Shown here: positions 26,960 to 45,860 of the stretch, piece after piece
Layout: every line of letters starts with the position of its first letter
Position numbering within the stretch: the stretch's first letter is position 1
Origin: Candidatus Omnitrophota bacterium
GTDB taxonomy: Bacteria; Omnitrophota; Gorgyraeia; Aquiviventales; Aquiviventaceae
NCBI GenBank assembly: GCA_016209275.1
Contig: JACQWM010000004.1
Coordinates: forward strand, 42,243-106,242
Direction of reading: 5' to 3'
DNA: 64,000 nt
Notes under the pieces: model-generated
The model's input: only the letters and a program-made list of their open reading frames with translations
Databases searched by the model: none
Told to the model about the DNA's origin: nothing
Translations under genes and position numbers: made by a program

Positions 26960-28133
26960 CCGCCAGGCATCCCAGGCATCGGTGCCGTTGAGCGCGCCGC
27001 TCTTCCAGGGGCGGGAATGGGAGTATCTCAAGACCTGCCTGGACAGCGGGTGGGTCTCCTCGGCCGGCCCGTTTGTGGAGCGGTTTGAGCGCGAGGTGGC
27101 GGCGTATGTAGGAAGCCCTGAGGCGGTGGCCGTCGTCAACGGGACCGCGGGGTTGCATGTGGCTCTGCGCATGGTCGGCGTTGAGCCGGAGGATGAAGTG
27201 CTGGTTTCCGATGTGACGTTTATTGCGCCGGCGAATGCGATCCGGTATTGCCAGGCCCACCCGGTGTTCATTGATGCCGAGGCCGACACGTGGCAGATGG
27301 ATGTGGAGAAGGCGGAGCGGTTTTTGCGCACGGCATGCCAGCGCCGTCGGAAGGCGTGCTACAACCAGCGTACCGGCCGGCGCGTGCGCGCTATCGTGCC
27401 GGTGCACATCCTGGGACTAGCCTGCGAGATGGATCGGCTGATGGCGCTCGCACGCGAGTATCACCTGCAGGTCGTCGAAGATGCGGCCGAAGCGATGGGC
27501 GTGCGGTATCGCGGAACCCATGTCGGCACGTTTGGCGATGCCGGAGTGTTAAGTTTCAACGGCAACAAAATCATCACTGCCGGAGGCGGCGGCATGGTCC
27601 TCACACGCAGTCGGCGCCATGCGGCCGCTGCTCGGTATCTGACCACGCAGGCCAAAGATGATGCGCTGGAGTATGTGCATCACCACATCGGATACAATTA
27701 CCGGCTGCCGAATATCCAGGCGGCGCTTGGGCTGGCGCAACTGGAGCAGCTGGATGGGTTCATCGCGAAAAAGCGCGCCATCGCCGCGGTGTATGCCGAG
27801 GCGCTGGGGACGATCCATGGCCTGACCTTGATGCCGGCACCGCCGCACACGGAGCCGACCTATTGGCTCTACACCGTGCTGCTCGCACCCGGGACCACGA
27901 TTGCGCGGCGCCAGGCGGTCATCCGAGCGCTGCGCGCCGCCGGGATCGAGGCCCGGCCGTTGTGGCATCCGCTGCACGCCTTGCGGCCCTACCGGCGGTG
28001 CCAGCGGGTGGCGATCGAATACGCGCCTCGGTTATACGCGCGGGCGGTGAGCCTGCCATCCGGGGTGGGCTTGGGCGGCGAGACGCTCGCTGAGTGCGTG
28101 GCCACCGTCAGAGACACCTTGTTAGCCTCATGA
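26928..28133 (+). CDS. DegT-family PLP-dependent sugar aminotransferase (second copy)
   Basis: Lys-region SFNGNKIITAGGGGM and the typical DegT N-terminus. Start uncertain (overlaps upstream by ~30 nt). Confidence 0.7.
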   Translation: MDTAQASTPSNRQASQASVPLSAPLFQGREWEYLKTCLDSGWVSSAGPFVERFEREVAAYVGSPEAVAVVNGTAGLHVALRMVGVEPEDEVLVSDVTFIAPANAIRYCQAHPVFIDAEADTWQMDVEKAERFLRTACQRRRKACYNQRTGRRVRAIVPVHILGLACEMDRLMALAREYHLQVVEDAAEAMGVRYRGTHVGTFGDAGVLSFNGNKIITAGGGGMVLTRSRRHAAAARYLTTQAKDDALEYVHHHIGYNYRLPNIQAALGLAQLEQLDGFIAKKRAIAAVYAEALGTIHGLTLMPAPPHTEPTYWLYTVLLAPGTTIARRQAVIRALRAAGIEARPLWHPLHALRPYRRCQRVAIEYAPRLYARAVSLPSGVGLGGETLAECVATVRDTLLAS

Positions 28134-30211
28134 CATATTTCGTTGAACATTTGACGTTTCGAACATGGGGTGTTGCCATGCTGCCTCGGCTGCTCATGGC
28201 GCGGCTGCGAGGACAGCGCAGGCCGGTGCGCTGCTACGTGATTGAAGGATCGCGGCTCGCACTGCAGGCGGCTCGCGTCACTGGGCGCCTGATCGGTATC
28301 ACGCCGGAGCGGCTTCAATTCCGCCTCATGGAGATTCGCGATGACGCCGGGCTGTCGATCCGCGTGCGGCTGGCCTATCGAGATTTGGCCGAGGTGCAAG
28401 CCGATGCGATGCGCGAGCCGGATTTCATTGCGTGCCAACAGCGCGCTCAAGGGACGGATCGCTTGCTGCCCTACCTGGCCAAGGGGTTGGCGGCCATTGA
28501 TCGGGCCGAGCGGGGAACCCTCTGGCGAAGGATGCTCACCACTCAGATCTGCGCGCGGCATATTTCCAGCGATGGGCAATCTCACGAGACACCGGTCGTG
28601 GTGATGGAGCGGCAGCCGTGGCATGGCGCGATTGAGCGCTATGCCAATCGGCACGGGCTTCGCGTCATTCCGGTTACCGCCGGCTGGGATCTCAATCGGC
28701 GGCTGCGCCGCCTGGCGCGCCGGCTCATCGATCGCATTCCTCGACCGCGGCCAACACAGGCGGTGACTGCCGGCCGAGTCGCCCCAACAGCTCGGCCGCG
28801 GATCGGGCTAACCTTCTATGGCCAGTTGAACCTGAAGCATCCGGGGCGCTACTCGGATCTGTTTTTCCTGCAGCAGTCCGCGATCCGCGGCAGCGACACG
28901 GTCCTGTTCTTTGAGTTTCCGCAGGATCCGCTTGATATGAAGAAGGCGGCTGAGTTGGCCGAGGAGGGCATTGAGGCGGTGGTGCTCAATCCGCGCGCGG
29001 CCACACTCCCCAAGGCGCGCGTGTGGAGTCCAAGACGGCGTGTGAGCGTGAAACAGCCTCGGGGGCGCAGCTGCGAGTCAGCATGGCTGGCGGAGCAAGC
29101 CGAGTCCTATCACGCGCTGCGGGCGTCGTGGCGCGAACTGTGCGCAGCACACCGCGTGAAGATCTACCTGACCTGGTACAAATATGACGGGGTCCATGCG
29201 GCGATCGCGGATGCGCTGCGGGATCTTGGCGGCATCCTCGCGGTCTATCAGCGGGCGTATGAAGGTCTTGCCTCGGCAGAGACGACGGTGAATGCTGATA
29301 TCATGTTCGGTTTCTCCACGATGGGTGCGGAGGTGGAGCAGCGCTCCGGCTCGACGATCGCCTACCATGTCACGACCGGCTACGTCGGCGATCATCGCGT
29401 TTCCCTGTGGCGCGGAGAGGCGATGAAGATCCGGCAGTCGCTGCAACAGCGCGGGGCGCGGCAGATCCTCGCCTTCGCCGATGAATCGACGAAAGATGAC
29501 GCGCGGTGGGCTCCTGGGCATCCGCAGGCCCAGCGCGACTATGCCTTTCTGCTTGAGCGCGTGCTGAATGAGCCGTGGCTTGGATTGGTGGTCAAGCCGA
29601 AGCGGCCGGTGAAGCTGCGGCCGCGGCTTGGGGCCATCGCCCAGCTCTTAGCGCGCGCCGAGGCCACGGGTCGCTGCATCGTGCTCGAAGGAGGGATTCT
29701 TCACGGCTCGGTTCCGCCGGCCGCCGCGGCACTGGCCGCCGATGTGATGATCCACGGCCACCTCTATGCCGCCACCGCCGGGGTGGAGTCTGCCTTAGCC
29801 GGCGTGCCCACGCTGTTGCTTGATCACGAGGGGTGGGCGGCAAGCCCCTTGTATCGATTAGGCGTGGGGCAGGTGGTGTTTCATGACTGGGAGTCCTTGT
29901 GGAAGCGGTGCCGTGAGCACTGGCATCAGCCGGGTGGTGTGCCGGGATTTGGCGACTGGTCTTCGATGCTTGATGAGCTGGATCCGTTTCGAGACGGCCG
30001 GGCGGCCGAGCGGCTGAGCACGTATCTTCAGTGGCTGCTCGAAGGATTTGCCGCCGGAGCCAGCCGCGAGACGGTCATGGCTGATGCCGCGCAGCGCTAT
30101 GCCTTGCAATGGGGCCACGAGATGGTGACCTCTGTTAACGCGGCCGGCTCAATTCGATATCAGATATCAAACCGCGGTTTGATATCTGATATCGCCTTGC
30201 AGGCGAGATGA
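28130..30211 (+). CDS. Large hypothetical protein (~693 aa), possible GT-B/capsule-synthesis-like transferase
   Basis: No canonical motifs. The C-terminal Rossmann-like segment resembles GT-B or CDP-glycerol transferase folds. ATGA coupling with the upstream DegT. Confidence 0.4.
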   Translation: MTYFVEHLTFRTWGVAMLPRLLMARLRGQRRPVRCYVIEGSRLALQAARVTGRLIGITPERLQFRLMEIRDDAGLSIRVRLAYRDLAEVQADAMREPDFIACQQRAQGTDRLLPYLAKGLAAIDRAERGTLWRRMLTTQICARHISSDGQSHETPVVVMERQPWHGAIERYANRHGLRVIPVTAGWDLNRRLRRLARRLIDRIPRPRPTQAVTAGRVAPTARPRIGLTFYGQLNLKHPGRYSDLFFLQQSAIRGSDTVLFFEFPQDPLDMKKAAELAEEGIEAVVLNPRAATLPKARVWSPRRRVSVKQPRGRSCESAWLAEQAESYHALRASWRELCAAHRVKIYLTWYKYDGVHAAIADALRDLGGILAVYQRAYEGLASAETTVNADIMFGFSTMGAEVEQRSGSTIAYHVTTGYVGDHRVSLWRGEAMKIRQSLQQRGARQILAFADESTKDDARWAPGHPQAQRDYAFLLERVLNEPWLGLVVKPKRPVKLRPRLGAIAQLLARAEATGRCIVLEGGILHGSVPPAAAALAADVMIHGHLYAATAGVESALAGVPTLLLDHEGWAASPLYRLGVGQVVFHDWESLWKRCREHWHQPGGVPGFGDWSSMLDELDPFRDGRAAERLSTYLQWLLEGFAAGASRETVMADAAQRYALQWGHEMVTSVNAAGSIRYQISNRGLISDIALQAR
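30155..30194. repeat. Perfect 40-bp palindrome CGATATCAGATATCAAACCG|CGGTTTGATATCTGATATCG
   Basis: Read directly from the sequence. Lies in the last codons of the 28130-30211 gene, 14 nt before the next ATG. Confidence 0.9.
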
Positions 30212-32322
30212 CGCAGCAGCGGCGCGGGGCGGTTTTTTTGGATCGCGATGGCACCATCGCGCGATACCGCGAGTACTGCCGATCGCCTGAGGAGTTTGAT
30301 CTGCTGCCTGGGGTGGGCGAGGCGATCCGCAAACTGAATGACGCGAACGTGCCGGTGGTGGTGATGACGAATCAGTCCGCGGTCGGCCGAGGATGGCTCA
30401 CGATGGAGACGTTGTCCTCGATCCATGAAAAGATGCAGCAGGAGCTGGCTCGCGTCGGCGCGCGGATCGATGCGATTTATGTCTGCCCGCATCATCCGGA
30501 TGACGGCTGTGCGTGCCGAAAACCTGGAACGCACATGCTGACCAAGGCGGCGGATGAGCTGGGGCTCTCACTGACTGAGTCGTATGTGATCGGCGATCGA
30601 TGGCAGGATGTCCAAACCGGCCGCGGGGCCGGCAGCCGGGCGATCCTTGTCAAGAGCGGTCATCCGGCTGAGCCGGCCAATGGGACCACGGCAGATTATG
30701 AAGCCCCAACACTTGGCGACGCGGTTGATTGGCTCTTGCAGCAGCGCCAGCAGCAGACCGCCTCGGCTCAGACCGACTGGTCCACGCGGTACCGCGCGTT
30801 AGCCGAGCGACTCTATGAAGTTCGTCGAGCGTGCCCGCGGTTTGCGGTCTTGGGCACGTCCACGCTGCACCCGCGGCATTCGCTGCCTGCGGATCAGGTG
30901 GAGCTGGCGGATCGGCCACAAGAAGACGCGCCTTGGCCGATTCCCTCATGGCCGCGGATCATCACCCACGCCCTGAAATTGGCCGTCTACGCGGCACAAG
31001 AAACAGCCAATCTCGTGTGGATTTCCTGGCATGGCCGAGGCATGTTGCGCCGCCTGTCGCAGCAGCCAGCCACCGTGGTGATGAAGACCTGGTGTTTTGG
31101 TCCGCAGTCGTTTGATGCCGCGCGTGACTTTTATTACGGCACCGTACCGCATCAGCTGCAGGCGAAAGGGATCTCCACGGTCGTGTTGTGCGGCGACACC
31201 CGAGAGCGATGCGACCTCGCCTTCCTCACAGCATTCTTGCGGGAGGGCGCGGTTCGCTACGTGCCCGAATGGCTGTTGCTGCCCTGGTGGGCGCCGATGA
31301 TCACCCTGTGCCGGCAGCTTTGGGGAGCGTTGTCGTTGCGCCGCGTGGCACAACGAGCCGCCTCTTCGTCGTTGGCCGCCGTGGCTGCGACGGCCTGCGT
31401 GAATGCTTTGACACCAATTACCATGCGTAATCTGCTGCAATATCACATCGCGCGGGCGGCCGTGAAACGATGGAACGCCGGCGCGTTTGTCACGTTGTAC
31501 GAAGGACAACCCTGGGAACAACCGGCGTGGCATGGAGCCAGAGCCGCGAATCCCTCATGCCGCCTCGTCGGCTATCAGCACACCGTCATCATGCCGCATT
31601 CCTTGGCTGTCCGCCGCCCCCAGTCGATTGGGAAAGAAATTGCAGCACCCGACATCGTCCTGTGCCTTGGAGAAACCACTCGGCGAATGATCGCCCCAGG
31701 ACATCAGCCGCACGGCAATCGCCTCATCACGTTTGGCACATGCCGGCGGCCAGCTTCCCGCGGTTCGGCTCGCGGCCCGCGGCCGGATCTTCGGACGGTC
31801 CTCGTCTTGCCTGAGGGGTTCCAGAGCGAGGCGCGCCTGCTCTTTCGTTTCGCCATGAACGTCGCAGCGATCATGCCAGACCACAGGTTCATTTTCCGCT
31901 CGCACCCAGTGCTGCCGTTTTCTCAAGTCCGGCCGCATCTTCAGCGCGATCCAGCACAGATGACCAATATCGAGATTTCAACGCGCAAGACGATCGAAGA
32001 AGATTTCAGCCGGGCTTCCGTCGTGCTGTACCGAGGATCCTCGACGGTCTTATATGCGGTGCTGCACGGTGTGAAGCCGATCTACGTGCATGACGCGGCA
32101 GCCCCTGATGTGGATCCATTGTTTGAGCTCAGCGCGTGGCGTGAGGGGGTCGAGGCGGCCACCCAGGCGCATGATCGGCTCGCGGCGTATGCCACCGGTG
32201 CCGTGCCGTCAGCGGCCGCCGAATGGCTATCGGCCGCCGCCTATGTCGATCAGTACGTGATACCGGTGGATGAGGCGGCGATTGATCGGTTCATTGACGC
32301 CTTCCGCGGAGCAAGGACGTGA
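30208..32322 (+). CDS. GmhB-like HAD-IIIA phosphatase domain fused to a ~520-aa uncharacterised C-terminal domain
   Basis: N-terminus VFLDRDGTI...VMTNQSAVGRG...AIYVCPHHPDDGCACRKPG (second GmhB signature in the window). The remainder is unrecognised but ends in a GT-B-like Rossmann segment. Confidence 0.55.
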   Translation: MTQQRRGAVFLDRDGTIARYREYCRSPEEFDLLPGVGEAIRKLNDANVPVVVMTNQSAVGRGWLTMETLSSIHEKMQQELARVGARIDAIYVCPHHPDDGCACRKPGTHMLTKAADELGLSLTESYVIGDRWQDVQTGRGAGSRAILVKSGHPAEPANGTTADYEAPTLGDAVDWLLQQRQQQTASAQTDWSTRYRALAERLYEVRRACPRFAVLGTSTLHPRHSLPADQVELADRPQEDAPWPIPSWPRIITHALKLAVYAAQETANLVWISWHGRGMLRRLSQQPATVVMKTWCFGPQSFDAARDFYYGTVPHQLQAKGISTVVLCGDTRERCDLAFLTAFLREGAVRYVPEWLLLPWWAPMITLCRQLWGALSLRRVAQRAASSSLAAVAATACVNALTPITMRNLLQYHIARAAVKRWNAGAFVTLYEGQPWEQPAWHGARAANPSCRLVGYQHTVIMPHSLAVRRPQSIGKEIAAPDIVLCLGETTRRMIAPGHQPHGNRLITFGTCRRPASRGSARGPRPDLRTVLVLPEGFQSEARLLFRFAMNVAAIMPDHRFIFRSHPVLPFSQVRPHLQRDPAQMTNIEISTRKTIEEDFSRASVVLYRGSSTVLYAVLHGVKPIYVHDAAAPDVDPLFELSAWREGVEAATQAHDRLAAYATGAVPSAAAEWLSAAAYVDQYVIPVDEAAIDRFIDAFRGART

Positions 32323-33356: not shown

Positions 33357-34330
33357 TTCAAACGAGCACCACCGTGCCGCTCTCATCCGTCAAGCCGCTT
33401 GAGGAGGTTTTCCAGTATCGAGCGTTTTGCCTTGAGGCCACGCGCCGAGCGTTGGCCGCAGGGCCGACCACGGTGCGAGCGCGCTCGCCAGTCAGCAACG
33501 CACGGCTTGAGCCGTGGGAAGCGATCGAGGGGCTGCCGTACTCGCGGTGTCCTGACTCCGGCAGCCTGTTGCTGTCACGACTCCCTGCGGATTCCGCGCG
33601 ATGGGCCGAGCTGTTGCGCGAGGTGAGCCGGCACCGCGTGTCATCCCGCGGTTTTTATCCCGGGCTCGCGCAATCGCGCGCCGATCATGTCCACGCGCCC
33701 AAGGTCGAGTGGATGCTCGAGACGATGCGGCTGCACGGCCTGGACCGGCCACGGGTCCTGGAAGTCACGACACCGCCGAGCGCGATCAGCGCGCTGTTAC
33801 AGGCCAGCGGCCGATTTTCAGACCTGCTCGTTGAGGATGAAATGGCGCTCGCCCATGAGCGCACGCCTCGTCCCTCGGCGGATCAGGTCGAGGCGGCGAT
33901 GCTCTGCGAGTCGCTCGATCGGGTGGATGATCCCGCGGCCTTGCTGCGCGCGGTGGCTGGCCGCTTGGTGGATGGCGGATTGCTGTTTGTGACAGCGCTG
34001 GTCGCCTCCGGATTTGACCTGGCGGTCTTGGGGTGCCGCAGCGCCTACCTCTATCCTCCGGATCGCGCCAACTGCTTTAGCCTGCGAGGGCTCTCCTTGC
34101 TGCTGGAGCGCTCGGGGTTTGCGCTGCAAGAGGTGAGCACGCCCGGCATGCTTGATGTGGAGATCATCCAGGCCCATCTGCAGCACGAGGCGTCCTTACC
34201 GCTATCGGTCTTCGAGCGGCAGCTGGTCACGGCGGATCACGAGACGCAGCGCGCGTTTCAAACATTTTTGCAGCAGCAGGCGCTGAGCTCCTTTGCCCGT
34301 CTGGTTGGCCGGAAACATTCGGAGGGTTGA
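33347..34330 (+). CDS. Hypothetical protein, degenerate methyltransferase-like fold
   Basis: RVLEVTT...LCESLDRVDDPAALLRAV...GGLLFV resembles a class I MTase without an intact glycine motif. Confidence 0.3.
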   Translation: MRLIQTSTTVPLSSVKPLEEVFQYRAFCLEATRRALAAGPTTVRARSPVSNARLEPWEAIEGLPYSRCPDSGSLLLSRLPADSARWAELLREVSRHRVSSRGFYPGLAQSRADHVHAPKVEWMLETMRLHGLDRPRVLEVTTPPSAISALLQASGRFSDLLVEDEMALAHERTPRPSADQVEAAMLCESLDRVDDPAALLRAVAGRLVDGGLLFVTALVASGFDLAVLGCRSAYLYPPDRANCFSLRGLSLLLERSGFALQEVSTPGMLDVEIIQAHLQHEASLPLSVFERQLVTADHETQRAFQTFLQQQALSSFARLVGRKHSEG

Positions 34331-34959
34331 TGATCCCAGAGACGTTTTTAACTCGATATTTTGAAGAGGCCTCACACGTTGCGCGCGCGCTCGACGTGGA
34401 AGTGGTCGACCGCATGGTGCAGCGCCTGGTCAAGCTTCGCGATGAGGGCGGTCGGTTGTTTCTCTGCGGGGTCGGCGGGGGGGCTGGCAACTGCAGCCAT
34501 GCGGTCAATGATTTCAGGAAGCTGGCCGGCATCGAAGCGTATTCGCCGGTGGACAATGTGTCTGAATTAACCGCGCGCGCCAACGATGAGGGATGGGACA
34601 CGGTGTTTGCCGGCTGGCTGCGGGGCAGCCGCGCTGGAGCGCGCGATGTGCTCTTGGTGTTCTCCGTGGGCGGTGGCGATCGCAAGCGCAACATCAGTGC
34701 GAATCTGGTGGCGGCCATCGATGAAGCCAAAGCCCGCGGCATGGATGTGCTGGGCATTGTCGGGCGAGACGGCGGCTACACCAAGCAGCGCGGCGATATC
34801 GTGCTCGTCATTCCGACGGTGAATCCCCAGTCGATTACGCCGCACACCGAAGCGTTTCAGGCGGTGGTGTGGCATGGGATCGTGTGCGATCCTCGCCTGA
34901 TGGCCCACAGCAACACGTGGGAGCGTCTGGCCTCGGACCAGGAGGCCGTGAAGGTCTGA
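34330..34959 (+). CDS. gmhA: Phosphoheptose (sedoheptulose-7-phosphate) isomerase GmhA (SIS domain)
   Basis: LFLCGVGGGAGNCSHAVNDF...VLLVFSVGGG SIS motifs. ~210 aa. Confidence 0.75.
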   Translation: MIPETFLTRYFEEASHVARALDVEVVDRMVQRLVKLRDEGGRLFLCGVGGGAGNCSHAVNDFRKLAGIEAYSPVDNVSELTARANDEGWDTVFAGWLRGSRAGARDVLLVFSVGGGDRKRNISANLVAAIDEAKARGMDVLGIVGRDGGYTKQRGDIVLVIPTVNPQSITPHTEAFQAVVWHGIVCDPRLMAHSNTWERLASDQEAVKV

Positions 34960-35687
34960 TGAAGCTTGCGGCTCTCATCCCGCGCCGGCGCGGACTCTCC
35001 AAGGCCCAATTACAGCAGCGGGCGGCGCTGAATCAGCTGCAGCGGTTCGAGGCAGTCCTCAACCGCCATCGCCGGTCCCTCAAGGACTGCACGACCATTC
35101 TGGAGTTCGGCTGCGGCCATGGGCGGCTGCTGAAGCCGGTGGCGGATTTCGTTCCGGGTGCTTCCATTGCCGGGTGCGATGTGCTGAACAAGGCGGTCGC
35201 CGTCTGCCGACGGAAGTTTCCTCAGGGACGCTTTGTGACCAATGGCGCGCTGCCGCCGCTGGCGTTCGCGGATGGATCGTTTGACTTGATGTATTCCTAC
35301 AGCGTCTTCACGCATCTGCCGGAAGCGCATCATCGCGCCTGGTTGAAGGAGCTCGCCCGCGTGCTGCGCCCCGGCGGGGTGATGCTGCATACGATTCACT
35401 CGCATGAGTTTCTCCGGCGGGCATCGCGTTTCAGCCCGGAATCGCTGGTGAAGTACGCATTACCGCAGCCGGTCGATGCGTTGATCCGCTCAGGCACAGG
35501 CTATACCTATACCATGGATGATCCCACACAGCCAGCCTACGGGCTGGCGATTATCAGCCCAGCGTACGTGGCGGCGCACTGGCCAAAGGTGAGCGGGCTC
35601 ACACTGCTCGATCATGTCGAGGGGGCCATTGAAGCCTACCCAGAAGGCTGCCAGGACATTGTCCTGTTGCTGAAAGCTCCGCAATGA
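34959..35687 (+). CDS. Class I SAM-dependent methyltransferase
   Basis: ILEFGCGHGRLL motif I and DLMYSYSVFTHL. TGATG coupling. Confidence 0.65.
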   Translation: MKLAALIPRRRGLSKAQLQQRAALNQLQRFEAVLNRHRRSLKDCTTILEFGCGHGRLLKPVADFVPGASIAGCDVLNKAVAVCRRKFPQGRFVTNGALPPLAFADGSFDLMYSYSVFTHLPEAHHRAWLKELARVLRPGGVMLHTIHSHEFLRRASRFSPESLVKYALPQPVDALIRSGTGYTYTMDDPTQPAYGLAIISPAYVAAHWPKVSGLTLLDHVEGAIEAYPEGCQDIVLLLKAPQ

Positions 35688-36076
35688 CGCGTCGACCGAA
35701 TCAAGAACGCTCCTTTGGCTATTCCGTGGGGATCGTGTGCGCGCTGCTTGCCGGGTTTCAGGTGTGGCGCGCGCGGCCACTCGCCGCGAGTGTCTTTAGC
35801 GTCCTCGCGATCGTGTTGATCGCCGCCGCATGGCTGCGGCCGATGCTCTTGCGTTGGCCGAGCGCATGGTGGTGGACGATGGCTCACGCGTTGGGATGGT
35901 TCAACGCGCGCGTGCTGCTGTCGGTGATGTTTTATATCATCCTGACACCGCTGGGGATTCTCCTGCGCTTTGTTCGGTGGGACCCGCTGTGTGTGCGTTC
36001 TCCGCGGCGGTCCAGCGGGTGGGTGCCGTATCCCGAAGGCCATCGGAGCCCGAAGCATTATGAACGCCTGTATTGA
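35684..36076 (+). CDS. SxtJ-like small membrane protein (carbamoyltransferase-associated)
   Basis: 130 aa with three predicted TM helices. This family typically sits next to NodU/CmcH carbamoyltransferases. Confidence 0.45.
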   Translation: MTRRPNQERSFGYSVGIVCALLAGFQVWRARPLAASVFSVLAIVLIAAAWLRPMLLRWPSAWWWTMAHALGWFNARVLLSVMFYIILTPLGILLRFVRWDPLCVRSPRRSSGWVPYPEGHRSPKHYERLY

Positions 36077-36082
36077 TCGCCC

Positions 36083-37147
36083 ATGATGACGAAGACGCGC
36101 TTTCTGAAGTTTGCGGTTGCGACGGTGATGATCTCCACGGTCCTGATCGTCGGCGCGCTCCTCGGGCTTGATCTGTGGTACCACAAACGGTTCGAAAAGG
36201 TCGCCGGAATGAACTGGCGGGGCTATCGCGGCCCGGTCGTCCATCGAAAACTCCCCGGGGAGCAGCGCGTCGCCGTCCTCGGAGGCAGCACGGCCTTTTG
36301 CTTCGGGGTCTCGGGCGCCGAGGCCTGGCCTGCGGCGCTGGAGCGGTCTGTGAATGCGCAGCGGCGAGCGCGCCACCAAGGGCCGGTGAGCATCGTCAAC
36401 TTGGGAGCATTGCATGTCGGCGCCTACTCATTTACCGACACCCTGCGCGATTACGCGTCGCTGGACTACGATGTGGCGCTCTTCTACACCGGCTACAACG
36501 ATCTGGGTGCGCCGAACATCCGAAATATTCGGCGGGAGTCGCCGCTCTTCCGGCTCACCGGCTATTACCCGATCCTGCCGCTCGTCGTCAAAGAAAAGCT
36601 GATGGCCCTTCGCTACGGAGGCAACTTGGAGGCCGCGTATCTCGCCGAGCAGGGCAAGCGCCCGACCTTCCGCCCGAATTATACGCAGGTGCAATCCTCC
36701 GAGGGTGCGCAGGCGGTGGCCGCCGTCAAGAAAGCGCTGCTCGAGTTTCCTGAAGAGGATCTGGTCGTGCACGGCGACCTGTCGCGCGCGCTGGGGGCGG
36801 TGAATGCCCAGCAGGTGCAGCTCGCCGCGGAGGGCTGCGGAGATCTGTGGGCCTTCTACTGTTGGTCGCTGGAGCGGGCGGTGAGCGTGGCACTCGATGA
36901 TGGCAAGACCGTGATGGTCGTCACGCAGCCGTATCTGTCTCCGCGCCATATCCAGCAGCAACAGGTGATGACGCGCCGGCTTCAGGAGCGATGGAAGGAT
37001 GATCCGCGCATTCAGTATGTCAACGTGGGGCAGACGGCGGATCTTCGGGATCCAGCGCTCTGTTTTGACGGCATCCACCTGACGGTGCAGGGCAACCAGC
37101 GGATCGCCGAAGCCCTAGTCGATCCGTTATTGCAGCGGCTTGATTGA
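36083..37147 (+). CDS. Membrane-anchored SGNH/GDSL-like hydrolase
   Basis: N-terminal TM helix, VAVLGGSTAFCFG (a GDS-like block I) and a later YTGYNDL block. Confidence 0.5.
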   Translation: MMTKTRFLKFAVATVMISTVLIVGALLGLDLWYHKRFEKVAGMNWRGYRGPVVHRKLPGEQRVAVLGGSTAFCFGVSGAEAWPAALERSVNAQRRARHQGPVSIVNLGALHVGAYSFTDTLRDYASLDYDVALFYTGYNDLGAPNIRNIRRESPLFRLTGYYPILPLVVKEKLMALRYGGNLEAAYLAEQGKRPTFRPNYTQVQSSEGAQAVAAVKKALLEFPEEDLVVHGDLSRALGAVNAQQVQLAAEGCGDLWAFYCWSLERAVSVALDDGKTVMVVTQPYLSPRHIQQQQVMTRRLQERWKDDPRIQYVNVGQTADLRDPALCFDGIHLTVQGNQRIAEALVDPLLQRLD

Positions 37148-37154
37148 GAGGGGC

Positions 37155-37316
37155 ATGATGAGCAAAGGACGCGTCCTTCGGGAATTTTGGCAGTTCCTCT
37201 GGCAAGAAAAAAAGTTCTGGCTGATTCCGATTGTGGTGGTGCTGGTCCTCTTCGGCGCGCTGCTGGTCTTTTCGCAAAGCAGCGCGGTGGCCCCCTTTAT
37301 CTACACGCTGTTTTGA
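37155..37316 (+). CDS. SxtK-like small membrane protein (53 aa; not in the supplied ORF track)
   Basis: MMSKGRVLREFWQFLWQEKKFWLIPIVVVLVLFGALLVFSQSSAVAPFIYTLF. Its stop overlaps the carbamoyltransferase ATG (TGATG). Confidence 0.45.
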   Translation: MMSKGRVLREFWQFLWQEKKFWLIPIVVVLVLFGALLVFSQSSAVAPFIYTLF

Positions 37317-39148
37317 TGCCAACACGGATCCTGGGGATTTCAGCGTATTACCATGACTCGGCGGCGTGCCTGCTGAGCGATGGGGATATTGTGGCCGCGG
37401 CCCAGGAGGAGCGCTTCACGCGCAAGAAGCATGACGCGCGCTTTCCTTCGCGCGCCGTGGAGTTCTGTTTGACGCAGGCTGGGATCACGATGAACGATCT
37501 TGACCTCGTCGGCTTCTATGAGAAGCCGCTGGTGAAGTTCGATCGGCTCTTAGAAACGTATCTGGCGTACGCCCCACGCGGGTGGCGATCGTTTCTGACG
37601 TCGATGCCGGTGTGGTTGAGCGAGAAGCTGTGGCTTCCCGACCTCATCGGCAGGGAGCTGGGGTATTCGGGGAAGATCCTCTTCGGAGACCACCATGAGT
37701 CCCATGCGGCCTCGGCGTTTTACCCCTCGCCGTTTGATGAGGCGGCGATTCTGACCATGGATGCGGTCGGGGAATGGGCCACGTCATCGTACGGCTACGG
37801 CAAGGGGAAGGACATCACCCTGCTTGGCGAAATGCGCTTTCCGCATTCGTTGGGGATGCTGTACTCGGCGTTCACCTATTTCACCGGCTTTAAGGTGAAC
37901 TCCGGGGAGTATAAGGTGATGGGGCTGGCCCCCTACGGCGAGCCGAGGTACGCCTCGCGGATCCGGGATCATCTGGTGCAGATTCATGACGACGGCAGTC
38001 TGACCCTCAACATGGACTACTTTAATTATTGCACCGGCTTGACCATGACCAACCGGAACTTCGAGCGGCTCTTCGGCGGGCCGCCGCGCGAGCCGGAAAG
38101 CCCGATCACGCAGCGTGAGATGGATCTGGCCAGGTCGATTCAAGAAGTGACCGAAGAGATCATGCTGAAGATGGCCCGGCACGTGCACCGGGAAACCGGA
38201 TTGTCATCGCTGTGTTTGGCTGGCGGTGTTGCGCTCAACTGTGTCGGCAACGGCCGGATCTTGCGCGAAGGGCCGTTTGAGCAGATCTGGGTGCAGCCTG
38301 CGGCCGGCGATGCCGGCGGGGCTCTCGGCGTGGCTTTGGCGTTGTGGCATCGATCCCTGGGACAGCCACGGCGCGCTCGCATCGGTCAAGCGTTCGCCGA
38401 TGATATGCGCGGCAGTCTCTTAGGGCCGGCATTTTCTGATGAAGTGATCAGCGCCTGGTTGAGCCAGGAAGATGTGGCCGCGACCCGGGTGGATCGCGAT
38501 GAGCTGCCCCGCCGCGTCGCAGGGTTGATCGCCGAGGGCAAGGTGGTCGGCTTGTTTCAATCCCGGATGGAATTCGGGCCCAGAGCGCTTGGAGCCCGCT
38601 CGATCCTCGGGGATCCGCGCTCGCCGCAGATGCAATCGCTGATGAACCTGAAGATCAAGTTCCGGGAGTCATTCAGGCCCTTCGCCCCGACGGTGCTGCG
38701 GGAGCGGGTGAGCGACTGGTTTGATCTGGATGGCGAGAGCCCCTACATGCTCCTGGTGGCGGATGTCTCCGAGAAACGCCGCCGGCCGATGGCGGATGCG
38801 GAACAATCGCTGTGGGGAATGAAGAAGCTCAACGTGGTCCGCTCTGAGATTCCGGCCGTGACCCACGTCGATTATTCGGCGCGCATCCAGACGATCCGCC
38901 GGGAGGCGAACCCGCTGTTCTATGATATTATCCAGGCGTTCGATTGGCTCACCGGCTGTCCCGTCGTCATCAACACCTCGTTTAACGTCCGCGGCGAGCC
39001 GATGGTGTGCACGCCGCAGGACGCCTATCGCTGTTTCATGCGCACACAGATGGATGCGCTGGTCCTGGAGAGCTTTCTGATCGAAAAATCTCAGCAGAAG
39101 CCGGTGGCGGAGGATGCCTCATGGCAGAAGGAGTTTCAACTCGATTAG
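37316..39148 (+). CDS. NodU/CmcH-family O-carbamoyltransferase
   Basis: ILGISAYYHDSAACLL...EERFTRKKHD N-terminal carbamoyltransferase signature. ~610 aa. Confidence 0.8.
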   Translation: MPTRILGISAYYHDSAACLLSDGDIVAAAQEERFTRKKHDARFPSRAVEFCLTQAGITMNDLDLVGFYEKPLVKFDRLLETYLAYAPRGWRSFLTSMPVWLSEKLWLPDLIGRELGYSGKILFGDHHESHAASAFYPSPFDEAAILTMDAVGEWATSSYGYGKGKDITLLGEMRFPHSLGMLYSAFTYFTGFKVNSGEYKVMGLAPYGEPRYASRIRDHLVQIHDDGSLTLNMDYFNYCTGLTMTNRNFERLFGGPPREPESPITQREMDLARSIQEVTEEIMLKMARHVHRETGLSSLCLAGGVALNCVGNGRILREGPFEQIWVQPAAGDAGGALGVALALWHRSLGQPRRARIGQAFADDMRGSLLGPAFSDEVISAWLSQEDVAATRVDRDELPRRVAGLIAEGKVVGLFQSRMEFGPRALGARSILGDPRSPQMQSLMNLKIKFRESFRPFAPTVLRERVSDWFDLDGESPYMLLVADVSEKRRRPMADAEQSLWGMKKLNVVRSEIPAVTHVDYSARIQTIRREANPLFYDIIQAFDWLTGCPVVINTSFNVRGEPMVCTPQDAYRCFMRTQMDALVLESFLIEKSQQKPVAEDASWQKEFQLD

Positions 39149-39884: not shown

Positions 39885-40657
39885 GGCCTCATCTGGCGAG
39901 CGTGCGGCTGCTTCCGAGAAAATTGCTGTGGCGGGCCGCGCCCCGGCGCACGGTCCATGCCCGCGGGCTGCGGTTTACGCTGCAGTGCGATAATTGGATC
40001 ACGCACTACCGGTGGTCCACGTACAACACCAAGGAGCCTGAGACGCTGGACTGGATTGACCGGTGGATCCGCGATGGCGATACCTTCTTCGACATCGGGG
40101 CCAACATCGGCCTCTATACTATCTATGCGGCGCTGCGGCATCCTGCTGCGCGGATCATCGCGTTCGAGCCGGAGTACGCCAACCTGCACTTGCTGAGAGA
40201 TAATCTTATCCAGAACGGCGTGCACGATCGGGTGGAGGTCTATTCGGTCGCGCTCGGCAATCACACCGGCATCAGCCGGCTCCACATCCAGGATTTCACT
40301 CCCGGGGCAGCGCTCCATACGGAATCGCAAGCGCCCTTGCGCCGCACGAGAACGGAGCGCTCCGTCATCTGGCAGGAGGGCATCGGCACCTTTACGCTGG
40401 ATCAGTTTTGCGAAGAGACGCAGTGCGCGCCGACCTGCTTGAAAATCGACGTGGATGGGACCGAACGCGAAATTTTGGAGGGGGCGGCGCGGACGCTTCA
40501 GTCGACCGCGATGCGGTCGCTGATCGTCGAGCTCTCCGAGGAACCCTCCATCCGAGGGGCGTGCGAACGATTGCTGGCGACCGCCGGCTTGCGCCGCGAG
40601 ATGTCCTGGAGCCAGCCGGAGCGATGCGATAATCAACTGTGGGTGAGAAGCGCATGA
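39881..40657 (+). CDS. FkbM-family methyltransferase
   Basis: FFDIGANIGLYT...FEPE...LKIDVDGTE motifs. Confidence 0.7.
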   Translation: MRPHLASVRLLPRKLLWRAAPRRTVHARGLRFTLQCDNWITHYRWSTYNTKEPETLDWIDRWIRDGDTFFDIGANIGLYTIYAALRHPAARIIAFEPEYANLHLLRDNLIQNGVHDRVEVYSVALGNHTGISRLHIQDFTPGAALHTESQAPLRRTRTERSVIWQEGIGTFTLDQFCEETQCAPTCLKIDVDGTEREILEGAARTLQSTAMRSLIVELSEEPSIRGACERLLATAGLRREMSWSQPERCDNQLWVRSA

Positions 40658-41718
40658 CGCCGCTCGCCGGGCTGATCGCGGCACTGGCCCTCCTCGAGGG
40701 CATGGTTCGAGGTCTCCGTCGTGCTCGAAGCCTGACGTGGACATCCGCCCCGCCGCGGCTGCTGTCATTCCTGAGCCATCCCTACGCGCTCTATGTCCGT
40801 CGGCCGAACTGCGACGGGTTGTATCCGTCCAACAGCCTCGGCTATGCCGGCAAGCGCGAGTATCCGCCGGCTTGCCTGCCAGGAACGATCCGCATCTATT
40901 GCGTGGGCGGCTCGACGACCGAAGCGCATGATCCGGCTCAGGGACCGGATGCGAGCTGGCCTGGAAAATTGCAAGACCTGCTCGCGCAGCGGTTTCCTGG
41001 CACGGCATTTGAATGCATCAATGCCGGGACCGCCGGGTATACGTCTGCCGAGTCGCTCGCCGAATTCGCCTTTCGCGGGGTGGACCTGAAACCTGATCTG
41101 CTGGTGGTGTATCACAATGTGAATGATGCGTGGACCTGCCAAATGGTCGAGGGATTCCGCTCAGACTATTCCCATGCCCGACGCCATAAGCCTTGGGATG
41201 TCGGCTGGATCAACCGCTTGCCCCCGATCCCATGGTGGGCCGGCTATGAGCTCCTTCGAGGCTGGATTATGCGGAGGTGGGGCAAGGCGAATGCCCTAAT
41301 CTACTGGATCGCTGATCCACCGTGGCGATCCGCGCGGTCGTTTCAGCCGCAGGCCGTCGCCGCGTTTGAGCGAAATATCAGGAATCTCATCGCCCTCGCC
41401 ACGACCTGGGACTGCGTGCCGGTGCTCATCAAATGGGAGTGCGACTGGGCTGCGCGGCGCGTGCCGAATTACCTTGAGCCGCACCCAGAAACCGCCGAGG
41501 TCTATTTCCGCTATCTGCAGGCGAACAATGAGGCCTTGGCCCGGCTCGGAGCCGCGGTTCCAGGATGCCATTATCTCGATGTCGGGCCCTTCGACCCGGA
41601 GCATTTCTCAGACACGATTCACTTCAGCCCGCAGGGTCTTGAGGAAATGGCCAGGCGGGTGGCCGATGGATTACTACCGGTGGTCCAATCATTGATGGTC
41701 AGCGCAGGAGGCCGATGA
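40654..41718 (+). CDS. SGNH/GDSL-like hydrolase (second paralogue)
   Basis: IYCVGGSTT block I and VVYHNVNDAW block III, with an N-terminal hydrophobic segment. Confidence 0.5.
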   Translation: MTPLAGLIAALALLEGMVRGLRRARSLTWTSAPPRLLSFLSHPYALYVRRPNCDGLYPSNSLGYAGKREYPPACLPGTIRIYCVGGSTTEAHDPAQGPDASWPGKLQDLLAQRFPGTAFECINAGTAGYTSAESLAEFAFRGVDLKPDLLVVYHNVNDAWTCQMVEGFRSDYSHARRHKPWDVGWINRLPPIPWWAGYELLRGWIMRRWGKANALIYWIADPPWRSARSFQPQAVAAFERNIRNLIALATTWDCVPVLIKWECDWAARRVPNYLEPHPETAEVYFRYLQANNEALARLGAAVPGCHYLDVGPFDPEHFSDTIHFSPQGLEEMARRVADGLLPVVQSLMVSAGGR

Positions 41719-44335: not shown

Positions 44336-45087
44336 TGAAACGCACGCCGATGGTGGTGGCGGTCACCGGGGGAACGAGCGGCATCGGCTTGGCGGTCGCC
44401 GAGCTCTTCATGGCGCGAGGACACCCGGTGGCGGTCTGCTCGCGGTCCCCGCGGGCGAACGCGTTGCGATCAGCGATGGTCCATGTGCCGCTGGATGTCC
44501 GGCGGCGGGATGCGGTGGCGCAATTTGCCAAGGACGTGCGACAACGATTCGGAACCTTGGATGTGCTGGTCAATTGCGCCGGAGTCTCGCGTTGGCGCGC
44601 GATCACCGATGTGGATGAGGTGTTTGCAGAAGAATTGATCGGCACCAATCTGCTGGGAACGCTGTGGGGCTGCGCGGCGGCCGCGGCGGTGATGAAGCGC
44701 GGTGGGTGCATCGTGAATATCTCCAGCCTGGCGGGCAAGCGGGGCAGTGCCAACAATAGCGTCTACTGCGCGACCAAATTTGCCGTCAATGGCCTCACAC
44801 AAGCACTCGCCAAGGAGCTTGGGCCCCGCGGCATCCGAGTCAACGCGGTCTGCCCAGTGTATGTGGAAACCGAGCACGTTCTTCTATCGCTGGCCGATCC
44901 TGCCTCGCCGGCCGCCGGACGCAACGTGCGAACGTATTTGTCATCATTTGCCTCGACACAGACCGCCCTGGGCCGGCTGCCGACGGCGCGTGAAGTCGCC
45001 GAGGTCGTGTACTTTCTTGCGAGTCCAGCCGCCTCAGCGATCACCGGCCAGTGCGTGAATGTGGATTGCGGGGTGCTGCCCCAATGA
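44335..45087 (+). CDS. SDR-family oxidoreductase
   Basis: VVAVTGGTSGIGLAV Rossmann motif. YCATK catalytic motif. Confidence 0.7.
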   Translation: MKRTPMVVAVTGGTSGIGLAVAELFMARGHPVAVCSRSPRANALRSAMVHVPLDVRRRDAVAQFAKDVRQRFGTLDVLVNCAGVSRWRAITDVDEVFAEELIGTNLLGTLWGCAAAAAVMKRGGCIVNISSLAGKRGSANNSVYCATKFAVNGLTQALAKELGPRGIRVNAVCPVYVETEHVLLSLADPASPAAGRNVRTYLSSFASTQTALGRLPTAREVAEVVYFLASPAASAITGQCVNVDCGVLPQ

Positions 45088-45860
45088 GTGCTTTGCGCAT
45101 CGCCGCGATCATCCCGGCCCGCATGGCCTCCTCGCGCTTTCCCGGCAAGCCGCTGCTGGCGGTCAACGGGTTGCCGATGATTGAGCATGTGCGGCGCCGG
45201 ACCGCGCTGTGCGCCGGGTTTTCCGAAGTGATTGTGGCCACATGCGATCAGGCCATTGCCGAGGTGGTCAAGGCCTATGGCGGAATCTGCGTGATGACAT
45301 CACCGGAGCACCCGGCCGCATCGGATCGCGTGGCCGAGGCGATGGCGCAGCGTGACTGCACGCATGTGGTGAATGTGCAAGGGGATGAAATTTTGGTCTT
45401 GCCACATGATTTGCAGCGGATGGCCTCAGCCATCGAAGCCGCGCCCGAAGTTCCAGCCTGGAATGCGGTGGCCCGGATTGAAACTCGCGAGGAGCTCGGC
45501 GATCCCTCGGTGGTGAAGTGCGTGCTCTCAGGCTCCGGGCGGGTGTTGTATTGCGCGAGGGATTTCTCGGCGCTTGGAGTGCGGCGCGAAGAAGGCTATG
45601 AACCGGTGCGCCGGGTGCTCGGCATTCTCGGCTACCGGAGGGAATTTCTTCAGCGGTACGGCGAGCTTCCGCGCACACCGCTTGAGCGCGCAGGCTCCAT
45701 TGATCAAAACCGCATCCTGGAGCACGATGTGCTGTTGCAGGCGATTGAATTCACCCGAGGCTATCCTGGCATCAACGAGCCGCGCGAGGTCGCGGTGGTG
45801 GAGCAGCTCCTGAGGAGCGATGCGTCACAGCAGGGCGTCTTGCAGGAGATTCTCCGATGA
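45084..45860 (+). CDS. KdsB-like ulosonate cytidylyltransferase (CTP_transf_3)
   Basis: IAAIIPARMASSRFPGKPL N-terminal motif, near-identical to the KdsB/NeuA consensus. Confidence 0.7.
   Translation: MSALRIAAIIPARMASSRFPGKPLLAVNGLPMIEHVRRRTALCAGFSEVIVATCDQAIAEVVKAYGGICVMTSPEHPAASDRVAEAMAQRDCTHVVNVQGDEILVLPHDLQRMASAIEAAPEVPAWNAVARIETREELGDPSVVKCVLSGSGRVLYCARDFSALGVRREEGYEPVRRVLGILGYRREFLQRYGELPRTPLERAGSIDQNRILEHDVLLQAIEFTRGYPGINEPREVAVVEQLLRSDASQQGVLQEILR

Follow-up and report, generated by a model that had tools for sequence, protein, structure and literature searches.

A predicted O-carbamoylation cassette with SxtJ- and DUF5989/SxtK-family membrane proteins in a glycan locus of an uncultured Omnitrophota bacterium

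The closest described counterpart of the locus analysed here is the sxtI-sxtJ-sxtK(-sxtL) block of cyanobacterial saxitoxin clusters, which encodes the same protein families: a class III O-carbamoyltransferase, a member of the Pfam family SxtJ and a member of PF19451. SxtJ and SxtK have so far only been hypothesised to work in conjunction with SxtI, whereas SxtL, a GDSL protein encoded beside sxtI-J-K, is a proposed decarbamoylase. We found no experiments addressing SxtJ or SxtK in the literature, which up to 2026 still terms both proteins uncharacterised, as the original prediction had also stated. The related enzymes GdmN and TobZ are known from structural work as soluble enzymes, and GdmN has been examined in vitro with no partners of this kind. 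To our knowledge, SxtJ/SxtK-type partners have not been described in the clusters of the solved enzymes TobZ, GdmN and NovN. That an enzyme encoded inside a glycan gene cluster may O-carbamoylate an envelope sugar has a precedent in WapO (PA5005), a putative heptose 7-O-carbamoyltransferase to which the carbamoylated heptose of the Pseudomonas LPS core is attributed. We know of no small membrane partners reported for WapO. Finally, the AT3/MBOAT plus SGNH systems of O-acetylation (PatA/PatB, AlgI/J/X, OafA) offer an analogy only, in which membrane component(s) and an extracytoplasmic SGNH-fold enzyme decorate envelope glycans.

We analysed a 64-kb stretch of DNA (hereafter, the window) from an uncultured 'Candidatus Omnitrophica' bacterium. 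All ORFs previously described between positions 35684 and 39148 were found in place on the + strand. Gene sizes are nearly identical to those of the saxitoxin block: sxtJ, sxtK and sxtI measure 405, 165 and 1839 bp, against 393, 159-162 and 1833 bp in the window. Both blocks also include a GDSL/SGNH gene, which in the window parallels sxtL, placed after sxtI-J-K. In contrast, the gene order is J-SGNH-K-I in the window and I-J-K-L in sxt, and the two differ in context (a glycan operon versus an alkaloid pathway) and in host (an Omnitrophota-type MAG versus a cyanobacterium). Moreover, the SGNH protein of the window is not demonstrably an orthologue of SxtL, since it resembles the product of a cyanobacterial gene at the SxtL position in block I only (E 0.001).

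The last gene of the cassette (37316-39148, + strand) encodes a 610-aa protein whose N-terminal domain is Kae1-like and whose C-terminal domain is YrdC-like (Pfam Carbam_trans_N, 325.7 bits; Carbam_trans_C, 245.7 bits). Among solved structures it is closest to GdmN and NovN (E about 1e-90), followed by TobZ (E about 1e-74), in line with the NodU/CmcH-type assignment first proposed, and sequence comparison identifies it as a class III O-carbamoyltransferase of the NodU/CmcH/TobZ/GdmN type. The competing identity, a tRNA-modifying enzyme of the TsaD/Kae1 group, was rejected, as TsaD scored only 19 bits, under its cut-off. The enzyme shares the two-domain architecture of TobZ, GdmN and NovN; its metal ligands H126, H130, D149 and D332 align to H133, H137, D156 and D333 of GdmN, and its general base H13 to H27. 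Conservation at these positions is 95% or higher in 56 DUF5989-linked carbamoyltransferases, and the residues suggest a carbamoyl-AMP mechanism; the GPRALGARS motif occupies residues 421-429. The protein differs from GdmN in that it lacks the C-terminal dimerisation domain (610 aa versus 682) and contains about 20 additional residues (about 483-505). A further difference lies in the region aligned to the acceptor-binding helix 1 of GdmN, which is nearly invariant among DUF5989-linked enzymes yet unlike that of GdmN.

The enzyme gene is preceded by the small ORF that was predicted to encode 53 amino acids (37155-37316) and to resemble SxtK. The protein clearly belongs to Pfam DUF5989 (PF19451; 88 bits, cut-off 27, E 4e-25); UniRef gives the name 'SxtK' to cyanobacterial members of this family, one of which shares 59% identity with the window protein. 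The 53-aa frame exists, but its start is most likely the second ATG, which yields a 52-aa product (37158-37316, + strand) with the N-terminus MSKGRV, because nearly all homologues have the 52-aa form and because the same start was called independently on identical metagenomic contigs. A Shine-Dalgarno-like GAGAGGGG (37146-37153, + strand), read from the sequence, lies before the ORF and overlaps the stop codon of the SGNH gene. As originally noted, the end of the small ORF overlaps the start of the carbamoyltransferase gene: TGA (37314-37316) and ATG (37316-37318) share one base. The ORF had been called unannotated, and it was indeed absent from the ORF track then used, but public gene callers do predict it and NCBI labels its relatives 'DUF5989 family protein'. 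Its close homologues comprise 693 cluster representatives (75-100% identity, nearly all 52 aa), and an alignment of 26 sequences has 24 invariant positions out of 53; this level of sequence conservation places the ORF far beyond chance. The micro-protein consists of an amphipathic N-terminal helix (hydrophobic moment 0.65), one transmembrane helix and a C-terminus with the invariant APFIYTLF, and its AF2 model (pLDDT 79) shows helices at residues 4-17, 21-41 and 46-52. The mean net charge across 84 family members is +2.8 in the N-terminal flank and about 0 in the C-terminal tail, which together with the amphipathic helix points to an orientation with the N-terminus inside.

The 130-aa protein (35684-36076, + strand) likewise proved to be a member of the family it was thought to resemble, Pfam SxtJ (PF19588; 44.6 bits, gathering cut-off 24.4, E 2.5e-11). 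It has three hydrophobic segments (about residues 14-25, 37-53 and 72-92) and belongs to a family in which the motifs RxFG, P..L.P....WM and TPxGLxxRLxGKDxL are conserved (alignment of 52 sequences); the same 130-aa gene is called on an identical public contig. It lies upstream of the small ORF as described, but not directly, since an SGNH/GDSL-like gene (36083-37147, + strand) intervenes. This fourth member of the cassette, absent from the original prediction, encodes a putative N-anchored hydrolase or transferase of 354 aa. Its score against Pfam Lipase_GDSL_2 is only 23.7 bits, under the cut-off of 32.9, and the assignment draws on the residues invariant among 46 relatives (G67, G68, S69, T70, N106, N139, D140, D329 and H332) and on the predicted fold. 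The AF2 model (pLDDT 86.8) comprises an alpha/beta core preceded by a long helix at the N-terminus (residues 4-41), and its Foldseek matches, namely CgnD, PatB, carbohydrate esterases and TesA, are SGNH enzymes. At NCBI, an identical protein carries the name 'SGNH/GDSL hydrolase family protein [Candidatus Omnitrophica bacterium]'. The best solved match is CgnD (Foldseek E 4e-6; sequence profile E 1e-5), which has a similar length and the GGST block I in common and stems from the crocagin cluster, where a carbamoyltransferase is also encoded (the CgnI/CgnD system). However, the similarity is weak (TM-score 0.44-0.51), CgnD has been assigned as a slow leader peptidase and crocagin, a natural product, is a peptide rather than a glycan.

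The gene set is widespread and already catalogued, as DUF5989-type small ORFs are encoded in at least 555 stretches from species-representative genomes of many phyla. It is therefore neither rare nor unannotated, which lowers the novelty of the module. Synteny was assessed for 63 DUF5989 genes flanked on either side by 2.5 kb of sequence or more. A carbamoyltransferase gene adjoins DUF5989 in 54 of these loci (86%): in 30 it follows directly downstream, and in 24 it lies upstream, at most 2.5 kb away. SxtJ adjoins DUF5989 in 49. In 31 of 33 cases, -6 to +20 nt separate the micro-protein stop from the enzyme start (median 8). One locus of a Rickettsiales MAG has exactly the order of the window, SxtJ-SGNH-DUF5989-enzyme. 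Across the 29 loci with all three families, the micro-protein and the enzyme both reach a median of 63% identity to their window counterparts, and SxtJ 32%; by sequence identity, the micro-protein is thus as conserved as the enzyme. The original prediction hinged on conservation of the small ORFs in homologous loci, and this conservation is decisive. In 32 of the 63 loci, N-anchored SGNH-superfamily genes are found no more than 3 kb from DUF5989. Sequence similarity indicates that they are not one orthologous family, and that between the SGNH proteins of the window and the Rickettsiales locus was not significant. In six of the 63 loci, no carbamoyltransferase was detected within 8 kb of DUF5989, and SGNH-superfamily genes usually adjoin there; the DUF5989/SxtJ pair is thus not strictly tied to the enzyme.

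As originally proposed, the setting is a glycan locus: the 64 kb around the cassette form one large array of sugar-nucleotide and glycan operons, which makes a carbamoylated sugar a reasonable prediction for the product. Heptose-pathway-like genes (SIS, HAD, GHMP kinase and nucleotidyltransferase) are present in the window, a further likeness to the WapO case. The cassette is flanked by a methyltransferase/SIS gene set on one side and a transaldolase-like/FkbM methyltransferase set on the other, all on one strand and in overlapping or nearly abutting frames. Its spacings are operon-like: the SxtJ start codon overlaps the stop codon of the methyltransferase gene just before it (ATGA), followed by gaps of 6 and 10 nt and the 1-nt overlap. 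Our best guess, to which we give about even confidence, is that the cassette is a carbamoylation unit within this very large operon and that the SxtJ and DUF5989 proteins hold an otherwise soluble enzyme at the inner membrane. The YrdC-like domain would convert carbamoyl phosphate and ATP to carbamoyl-AMP, and the Kae1-like domain, with a metal bound by two His and two Asp, would transfer the carbamoyl group to a hydroxyl, most likely on a sugar of the glycan built by the surrounding genes. As conserved membrane partners, the two small proteins may form a small inner-membrane complex, with the amphipathic helix of the micro-protein on the cytoplasmic face, and dock the enzyme where it could act on a membrane-bound (lipid-linked) intermediate or beside the export machinery. 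The N-anchored SGNH protein is probably an esterase or transferase on the outer face of the membrane, where it could trim or reposition acyl or carbamoyl decorations. Since GdmN and TobZ are soluble and GdmN was studied without partners, the partners are dispensable for the chemistry itself, which points to localisation or substrate presentation. Against tethering, the presumed acceptor in saxitoxin clusters is a soluble small molecule for which it is not obviously needed, the six loci without the enzyme retain DUF5989, and in Acidobacteriota the trio also occurs amid housekeeping genes.

Alternatively, and considerably less probably, the enzyme would act on a soluble nucleotide-sugar in the cytoplasm, as its relatives TobZ and GdmN act on soluble substrates; the SGNH protein would remove carbamoyl or acetyl groups as proposed for SxtL, and the roles of SxtJ and DUF5989 would lie in export, product handling or regulation (e.g., as transporter accessories), with no docking. 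Such a role would suit the occurrence of DUF5989 without a carbamoyltransferase. However, the tight stop/start coupling, the adjacency across phyla and the equal evolutionary constraint on micro-protein and enzyme suggest a direct functional, probably physical, link, and a transporter gene consistently adjoining the pair was not found in the loci inspected. We consider it unlikely that the cassette is a mobile unit modifying a small molecule or lipid, with an incidental position in the sugar operon. The same trio does occur in toxin and NRPS clusters and amid housekeeping genes, but the window cassette is packed on one strand between its flanking sets, related loci with methyltransferase, SGNH, SxtJ, DUF5989 and enzyme genes adjoin O-antigen ABC transporter genes (Wzt_C domain), and the enzyme-less loci are still sugar loci.

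The DUF5989-adjoining enzymes share about 61% identity with the one in the window over many phyla and widely differing contexts, an unusual uniformity that fits a common acceptor better than diverse glycans. By analogy with two-step AT3/MBOAT plus SGNH O-acetylation, the enzyme might thus carbamoylate one conserved membrane-associated acceptor (a lipid, carrier or shared envelope component) that the small proteins present or hold, and the SGNH proteins would pass the carbamoyl group to the final target; the nearly invariant helix-1 stretch, the frequency of SGNH genes near DUF5989 (including five of the six loci lacking the enzyme in the available sequence, within 3 kb) and the match to PatB, an SGNH-fold peptidoglycan O-acetyltransferase, are all consistent with this. 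We regard this as the least probable explanation. Against it, a translocating conduit would hardly be expected from only four transmembrane segments in total, no carbamoyl carrier is known, the co-occurrence of non-orthologous SGNH genes may partly reflect glycan-locus content and helix-1 conservation could equally mark a docking surface. The cassette also differs from the AT3/MBOAT systems, in which the acyltransferases are large and polytopic and the donors are acetyl donors: its membrane parts have only about 3 + 1 hydrophobic segments, and its donor chemistry is ATP-dependent and cytoplasmic.

Returning to the membrane-tethered arrangement, a fragmentary in-frame DUF5989-enzyme fusion (P0255) would, if real, contradict the N-in, C-out topology, but it looks like an assembly or frame artefact. 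In favour of the arrangement, there is an apparently clean SxtJ-DUF5989 fusion of 150 aa (P0278). Finally, a second N-anchored SGNH/GDSL protein of 359 aa is encoded three genes downstream of the cassette (40639-41718, + strand; Lipase_GDSL_2, 57.3 bits). It is weakly similar to the 354-aa protein, in blocks I and V only, and is a possible further partner of uncertain membership.

The 35684-39148 segment of the + strand was originally predicted to carry a carbamoyltransferase with two small membrane partners. All three genes are real, but the segment holds four tightly packed genes. An SxtJ-family protein (130 aa, 35684-36076, +) opens the series, with an ATG that overlaps the stop codon of the upstream methyltransferase gene (ATGA). 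An SGNH/GDSL-like protein (354 aa, 36083-37147, +) starts 6 bases after this ORF, and a DUF5989 micro-protein of 52 aa, read from the ATG at 37158 to 37316 (+), begins 10 bases after the SGNH stop. The carbamoyltransferase comes last (610 aa, 37316-39148, +), and its ATG has one base in common with the TGA of the micro-protein. The carbamoyltransferase, SxtJ and SxtK genes are all encoded on the + strand inside 3.5 kb. The predicted likeness to the sxtI-J-K genes of the cyanobacterial saxitoxin (sxt) cluster stands for the gene families but not for their arrangement, since the order is unlike that of sxt and the SGNH gene lies between J and K. The sizes of the counterparts match closely those published for sxtJ (405 bp), sxtK (165 bp) and sxtI (1839 bp). 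Two adjacent ATGs open the small ORF. Almost all micro-protein homologues have the 52-aa form starting MSKGRV, the gene was called independently from the second ATG on each of two metagenomic contigs encoding proteins identical to those of the module, and a GAGAGGGG run is located ahead of the small ORF at 37146-37153. Together, these observations indicate that translation probably starts at 37158.

The micro-protein matches the Pfam family DUF5989 (PF19451) with 88 bits (cut-off 27) over profile positions 3-49 of 49. The small ORF proved to be a genuine and conserved gene, with 693 cluster representatives in a search of 5.8 billion proteins; the best 120 of these 693 were 75-100% identical to it. 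An alignment of 26 micro-proteins revealed 24 invariant positions out of 53, including the C-terminal APFIYTLF. This motif, the conserved EKK(Y/F)WLxP and a single-pass layout of ~50 aa were all present in the alignment and the AF2 helices. When 1.84 billion representatives at 50% identity were searched exhaustively with the profile, 4751 DUF5989 clusters emerged (E <= 1e-3), and at least 555 DUF5989 stretches were confirmed in species-representative genomes, among them genomes of Acidobacteriota, Actinomycetota, Nitrospirota, Pseudomonadota, Cyanobacteriota, Planctomycetota, Omnitrophota, Bacteroidota, Elusimicrobiota and candidate phyla. The likeness to SxtK was also confirmed: the micro-protein is 59% identical (E 1e-21) to one protein named SxtK in UniRef, which is not the original ABI75101. 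In a search seeded with the Trichodesmium homologue, this name was attached to PF19451 proteins of Planktothrix, Limnoraphis, Phormidium, Lusitaniella, Rippkaea and Crocosphaera. The reading frame of the enzyme is open from a TTG at 37187. The small ORF is nevertheless neither a chance ORF nor part of an extended enzyme N-terminus, because 24 of 63 loci have the enzyme gene upstream and still encode DUF5989 as a separate gene after SxtJ. For the 130-aa protein, the SxtJ likeness was confirmed as well (PF19588, 44.6 bits, cut-off 24.4); its length and its three hydrophobic segments are those expected of SxtJ, and the basic motifs conserved in the family are cytoplasm-like.

The enzyme presents the Pfam domains Carbam_trans_N (325.7 bits) and Carbam_trans_C (245.7 bits). 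Its layout of a Kae1-like N-terminal and a YrdC-like C-terminal domain aligns over the full length with the solved class III carbamoyltransferases GdmN, NovN and TobZ, which are its best solved relatives (E about 1e-90 for GdmN and NovN, about 1e-74 for TobZ). The assignment to the NodU/CmcH type rather than to TsaD/Kae1 was borne out: both TsaD models scored under their cut-offs (19.1 vs 24.8 bits in Pfam, 17.1 vs 296.1 bits in NCBIfam), which excludes a TsaD/Kae1 grouping. Judged by the NCBIfam equivalog NF041651 (130.5 bits, cut-off 1000), the enzyme is a relative of NodU and not a NodU orthologue. We located functional residues through the GdmN alignment, guided by those that the GdmN paper names. 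The putative metal ligands H126, H130, D149 and D332 align with GdmN H133, H137, D156 and D333, and the putative general base H13 aligns with GdmN H27; these positions are at least 95% conserved across 56 DUF5989-linked enzymes. Residues 421-429 (GPRALGARS) fit the motif GPRALG(x)RS, which belongs to the YrdC-like domain and is regarded in the literature as the putative catalytic site of SxtI. The intact ligands, base and motif likewise speak against a TsaD grouping. From what is known of the family, the YrdC-like domain would form carbamoyl-AMP from carbamoyl phosphate and ATP, and the Kae1-like domain would then transfer the carbamoyl group to a hydroxyl. DUF5989-linked enzymes are unusually uniform across phyla, including the stretch aligned to acceptor-binding helix 1 of GdmN. 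This uniformity suggests either that the enzymes have an acceptor in common or that a surface used for docking is conserved.

We searched 80 DUF5989-centred genome loci with the window proteins and iteratively built HMMs, and counted gene associations for the 63 DUF5989 genes with at least 2.5 kb on either side. A carbamoyltransferase gene was adjacent in 54 of them, directly downstream in 30 and within 2.5 kb upstream in 24, and SxtJ was adjacent in 49. The commonest orders were J-K-I and I-J-K, the latter being that of sxt. Where the enzyme follows the micro-protein, the distance from the stop of K to the start of I was between -6 and +20 nt in 31 of 33 loci (median 8). The exact window order, J-SGNH-K-I, was found in a Rickettsiales MAG (L076). 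Across the 29 loci with all three families, median identity to the window proteins was 63% for both the micro-protein and the enzyme, and 32% for SxtJ. DUF5989/SxtK, with its 4751 clusters, ranks among the more strongly conserved bacterial micro-proteins, being present in many phyla and as constrained as its partner enzyme. A carbamoyltransferase is absent from the 8 kb around DUF5989 in six of the 63 loci, which nonetheless encode sugar functions (SIS, methyltransferases, GT4, epimerases, SGNH). One of the six is that of Trichodesmium erythraeum IMS101 (L062, 7563-16138), where SxtJ-DUF5989 is followed by 4-5 tandem N-anchored SGNH paralogues of ~400 aa. In two acidobacterial lineages (L083/L084 and L087/L088, about 7580-10050), SxtJ-DUF5989-carbamoyltransferase forms a stand-alone operon with a PBP1-type or transporter gene on one side and holB, PdxA and SmpB on the other. 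This setting is housekeeping, neither a glycan nor a toxin cluster. Two DUF5989 copies were found among carbamoyltransferase genes or fragments in Candidatus Aminicenans sakinawicola (L030, 3154-10719) and at a second locus (L058, 3552-16138). SGNH paralogues are numerous there, reaching about ten in L058; the double copies suggest local duplication of the module.

The fourth gene matched Pfam GDSL_2 below threshold (23.7 bits, cut-off 32.9). Its 354-aa product combines an SGNH core with a hydrophobic helix at the N-terminus, and G67, G68, S69, T70, N106, N139, D140, D329 and H332 are invariant across 46 relatives; G108 is nearly invariant in a separate alignment. These residues correspond to the SGNH blocks: the serine S69 (block I), the oxyanion residues N106/G108, N139-D140 (II/III) and the Asp-x-x-His pair D329/H332 (V). 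The AF2 model (pLDDT 86.8) found fold matches that include PatB, carbohydrate esterases and TesA. Sequence blocks and predicted fold both place the protein in the SGNH/GDSL superfamily. The top match was CgnD of the crocagin cluster (PDB 8a2n), with a fold E of 4e-6, a sequence profile E of 1e-5 and a common GGST block I. A carbamoyltransferase, CgnI, is encoded in the crocagin cluster as well. Published work describes CgnD as a leader peptidase with very slow activity that PMSF failed to label.

In 32 of the 63 loci, N-anchored SGNH-superfamily genes, often several paralogues, lie no more than 3 kb from DUF5989. In sxt clusters, the GDSL gene sxtL comes immediately after sxtI-J-K, and sxtJ, sxtK and sxtL are again found together in a suomilide cluster. 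We dropped orthology with SxtL because the iterative HMM expanded from 7 to 74 matches and drifted into the whole SGNH superfamily. The window protein resembled the cyanobacterial GDSL gene product at the SxtL position (L065) in block I only (E 0.001), pairwise similarity to the SGNH protein of the Rickettsiales locus was not significant, and no SxtL-named protein was present among the 120 best profile matches. Based on these comparisons, the SGNH genes near DUF5989 do not form a single orthologous family. What we claim, given the HMM drift and the weak or negative pairwise results, is superfamily membership, a similar architecture and a recurrent association with SGNH-type partners.

We propose that SxtJ and the DUF5989 micro-protein would dock the enzyme at the membrane. 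The N-terminal helix of the micro-protein is strongly amphipathic (hydrophobic moment 0.65) and helix 21-41 is uniformly hydrophobic. The N-terminal flank has a mean charge of +2.8 across 84 members and the conserved tail is neutral; this distribution favours an N-in, C-out orientation, as predicted from sequence and model. The solved relatives of the enzyme are soluble and were studied without partners of the SxtJ/SxtK type, which by analogy argues for a role of the small proteins in localisation or substrate presentation over catalysis. Alternatively, these proteins may act in export or regulation.

In a more elaborate reading, which we consider improbable, the carbamoyltransferase would belong to a distinct, highly uniform subfamily in which SxtJ and the 52-aa DUF5989 protein are obligate subunits. 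It would act on one conserved membrane-associated acceptor or carrier, and N-anchored SGNH proteins on the opposite side of the membrane would complete the transfer to diverse targets. Trans-membrane O-acetylation systems would be the analogue of such a two-compartment carbamoylation. This pathway would explain why the enzyme and the micro-protein are ~60% identical across phyla and unrelated genomic contexts, and why DUF5989 is sometimes accompanied by SGNH genes alone. It would also explain why SxtI activity has apparently never been reconstituted from the enzyme alone. Reviews describe the SxtI step only as predicted.

Natural fusions do not prove a complex, since most of the long cases among the 50% representatives carry wrong-frame, Arg-rich extensions (P0243, P0244, P0245 and P0247). 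One protein of 150 aa (P0278) joins SxtJ and DUF5989 in one clean frame, is apparently a genuine fusion and counts in favour of the docking role; P0242 and P0248 are perhaps real SxtJ-DUF5989 fusions as well. An apparent DUF5989-enzyme fusion (P0255) was rejected as a contig-end fragment with a nonsense N-terminus. A single protein of 390 aa (P0358) consists of an N-terminal TM helix, a ~270-residue domain, a second TM helix and then DUF5989, a layout that would place the N-terminus of DUF5989 on the cytoplasmic side.

Although the small ORF was originally called unannotated, Pfam, NCBI and UniRef already record the families of the module, with their names and co-location. NCBIfam contains no model for SxtJ or DUF5989, and the term DUF5989 was not found in the literature searched. 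Kellmann et al. in 2008 reportedly already remarked on sxtJ/K homologues beside carbamoyltransferase genes. A role of SxtJ and SxtK alongside SxtI was proposed in 2008, and the saxitoxin literature has long presumed them to be partners of SxtI. The locus is an ordinary further example of a catalogued module, and its value is that of a pointer. The residual interest lies in a widespread, highly constrained micro-protein and a partner whose role is only proposed. Cultivable carriers include Bradyrhizobium liaoningense (L066), Magnetospirillum sp. UT-4 (L013), Leisingera sp. (L031), Reyranella aquatilis (L042) and Hongsoonwoonella zoysiae (L069), and the module also occurs in envelope-glycan loci and housekeeping neighbourhoods. 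The roles of SxtJ and SxtK could therefore be addressed without recourse to the saxitoxin producers, which are difficult to work with.

The surroundings of the module bear on its product. The window is one + strand array of about 59 genes, almost all devoted to sugar-nucleotide synthesis or glycan assembly. A nonulosonic-acid set comprises NeuB (18207-19268, +), a NeuC-like epimerase (19265-20473, +), a PglD-like acetyltransferase (20409-21137, +) and cytidylyltransferases (16644-17393 and 45051-45860, +). Heptose-pathway-like genes encode a GHMP kinase (2497-3618, +), an SIS protein (34327-34959, +), a CBS-nucleotidyltransferase (24891-25979, +) and HAD domains. Dehydratases, DegT aminotransferases, many methyltransferases, radical SAM proteins, asparagine synthase and glycosyltransferases were also found, whereas scanning of the window ORFs revealed neither Wzx nor Wzy nor an ABC transporter. 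An identical SGNH protein is recorded in NCBI from a 'Candidatus Omnitrophica bacterium' MAG. In a related locus, methyltransferase-SGNH-SxtJ-DUF5989-enzyme lies beside genes for an O-antigen ABC transporter that includes a Wzt_C domain. The LPS core of Pseudomonas contains an O-carbamoyl heptose credited to WapO, a precedent for a carbamoylated envelope sugar. Taken together, the glycan array, the transporter-linked relative and the WapO precedent make a carbamoylated sugar a sensible prediction, as first proposed. A rival explanation is that the acceptor is not a glycan. If the acceptor is indeed a sugar, O-carbamoyl decorations would be predicted on the surface glycans of uncultured lineages, which is of interest to glycobiology.

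Several other genes of the array merit mention. Two ORFs had no Pfam match (705 aa, 28094-30211; 409 aa, 23648-24877), and a 704-aa protein (30208-32322) matched Pfam solely through an N-terminal HAD domain, with ~500 residues beyond it lacking any match. Two radical SAM proteins (5888-6892, with a SPASM domain, and 60521-62620, 699 aa) and a sugar C-methyltransferase (4476-5891) hint at unusual sugar chemistry. Finally, a HisF-like and a HisH-like (glutamine amidotransferase) domain are fused in one 557-aa protein (21982-23655), whose gene adjoins the nonulosonic-acid genes; HisF-like/HisH-like pairs are linked to acetamidino formation on sugars.
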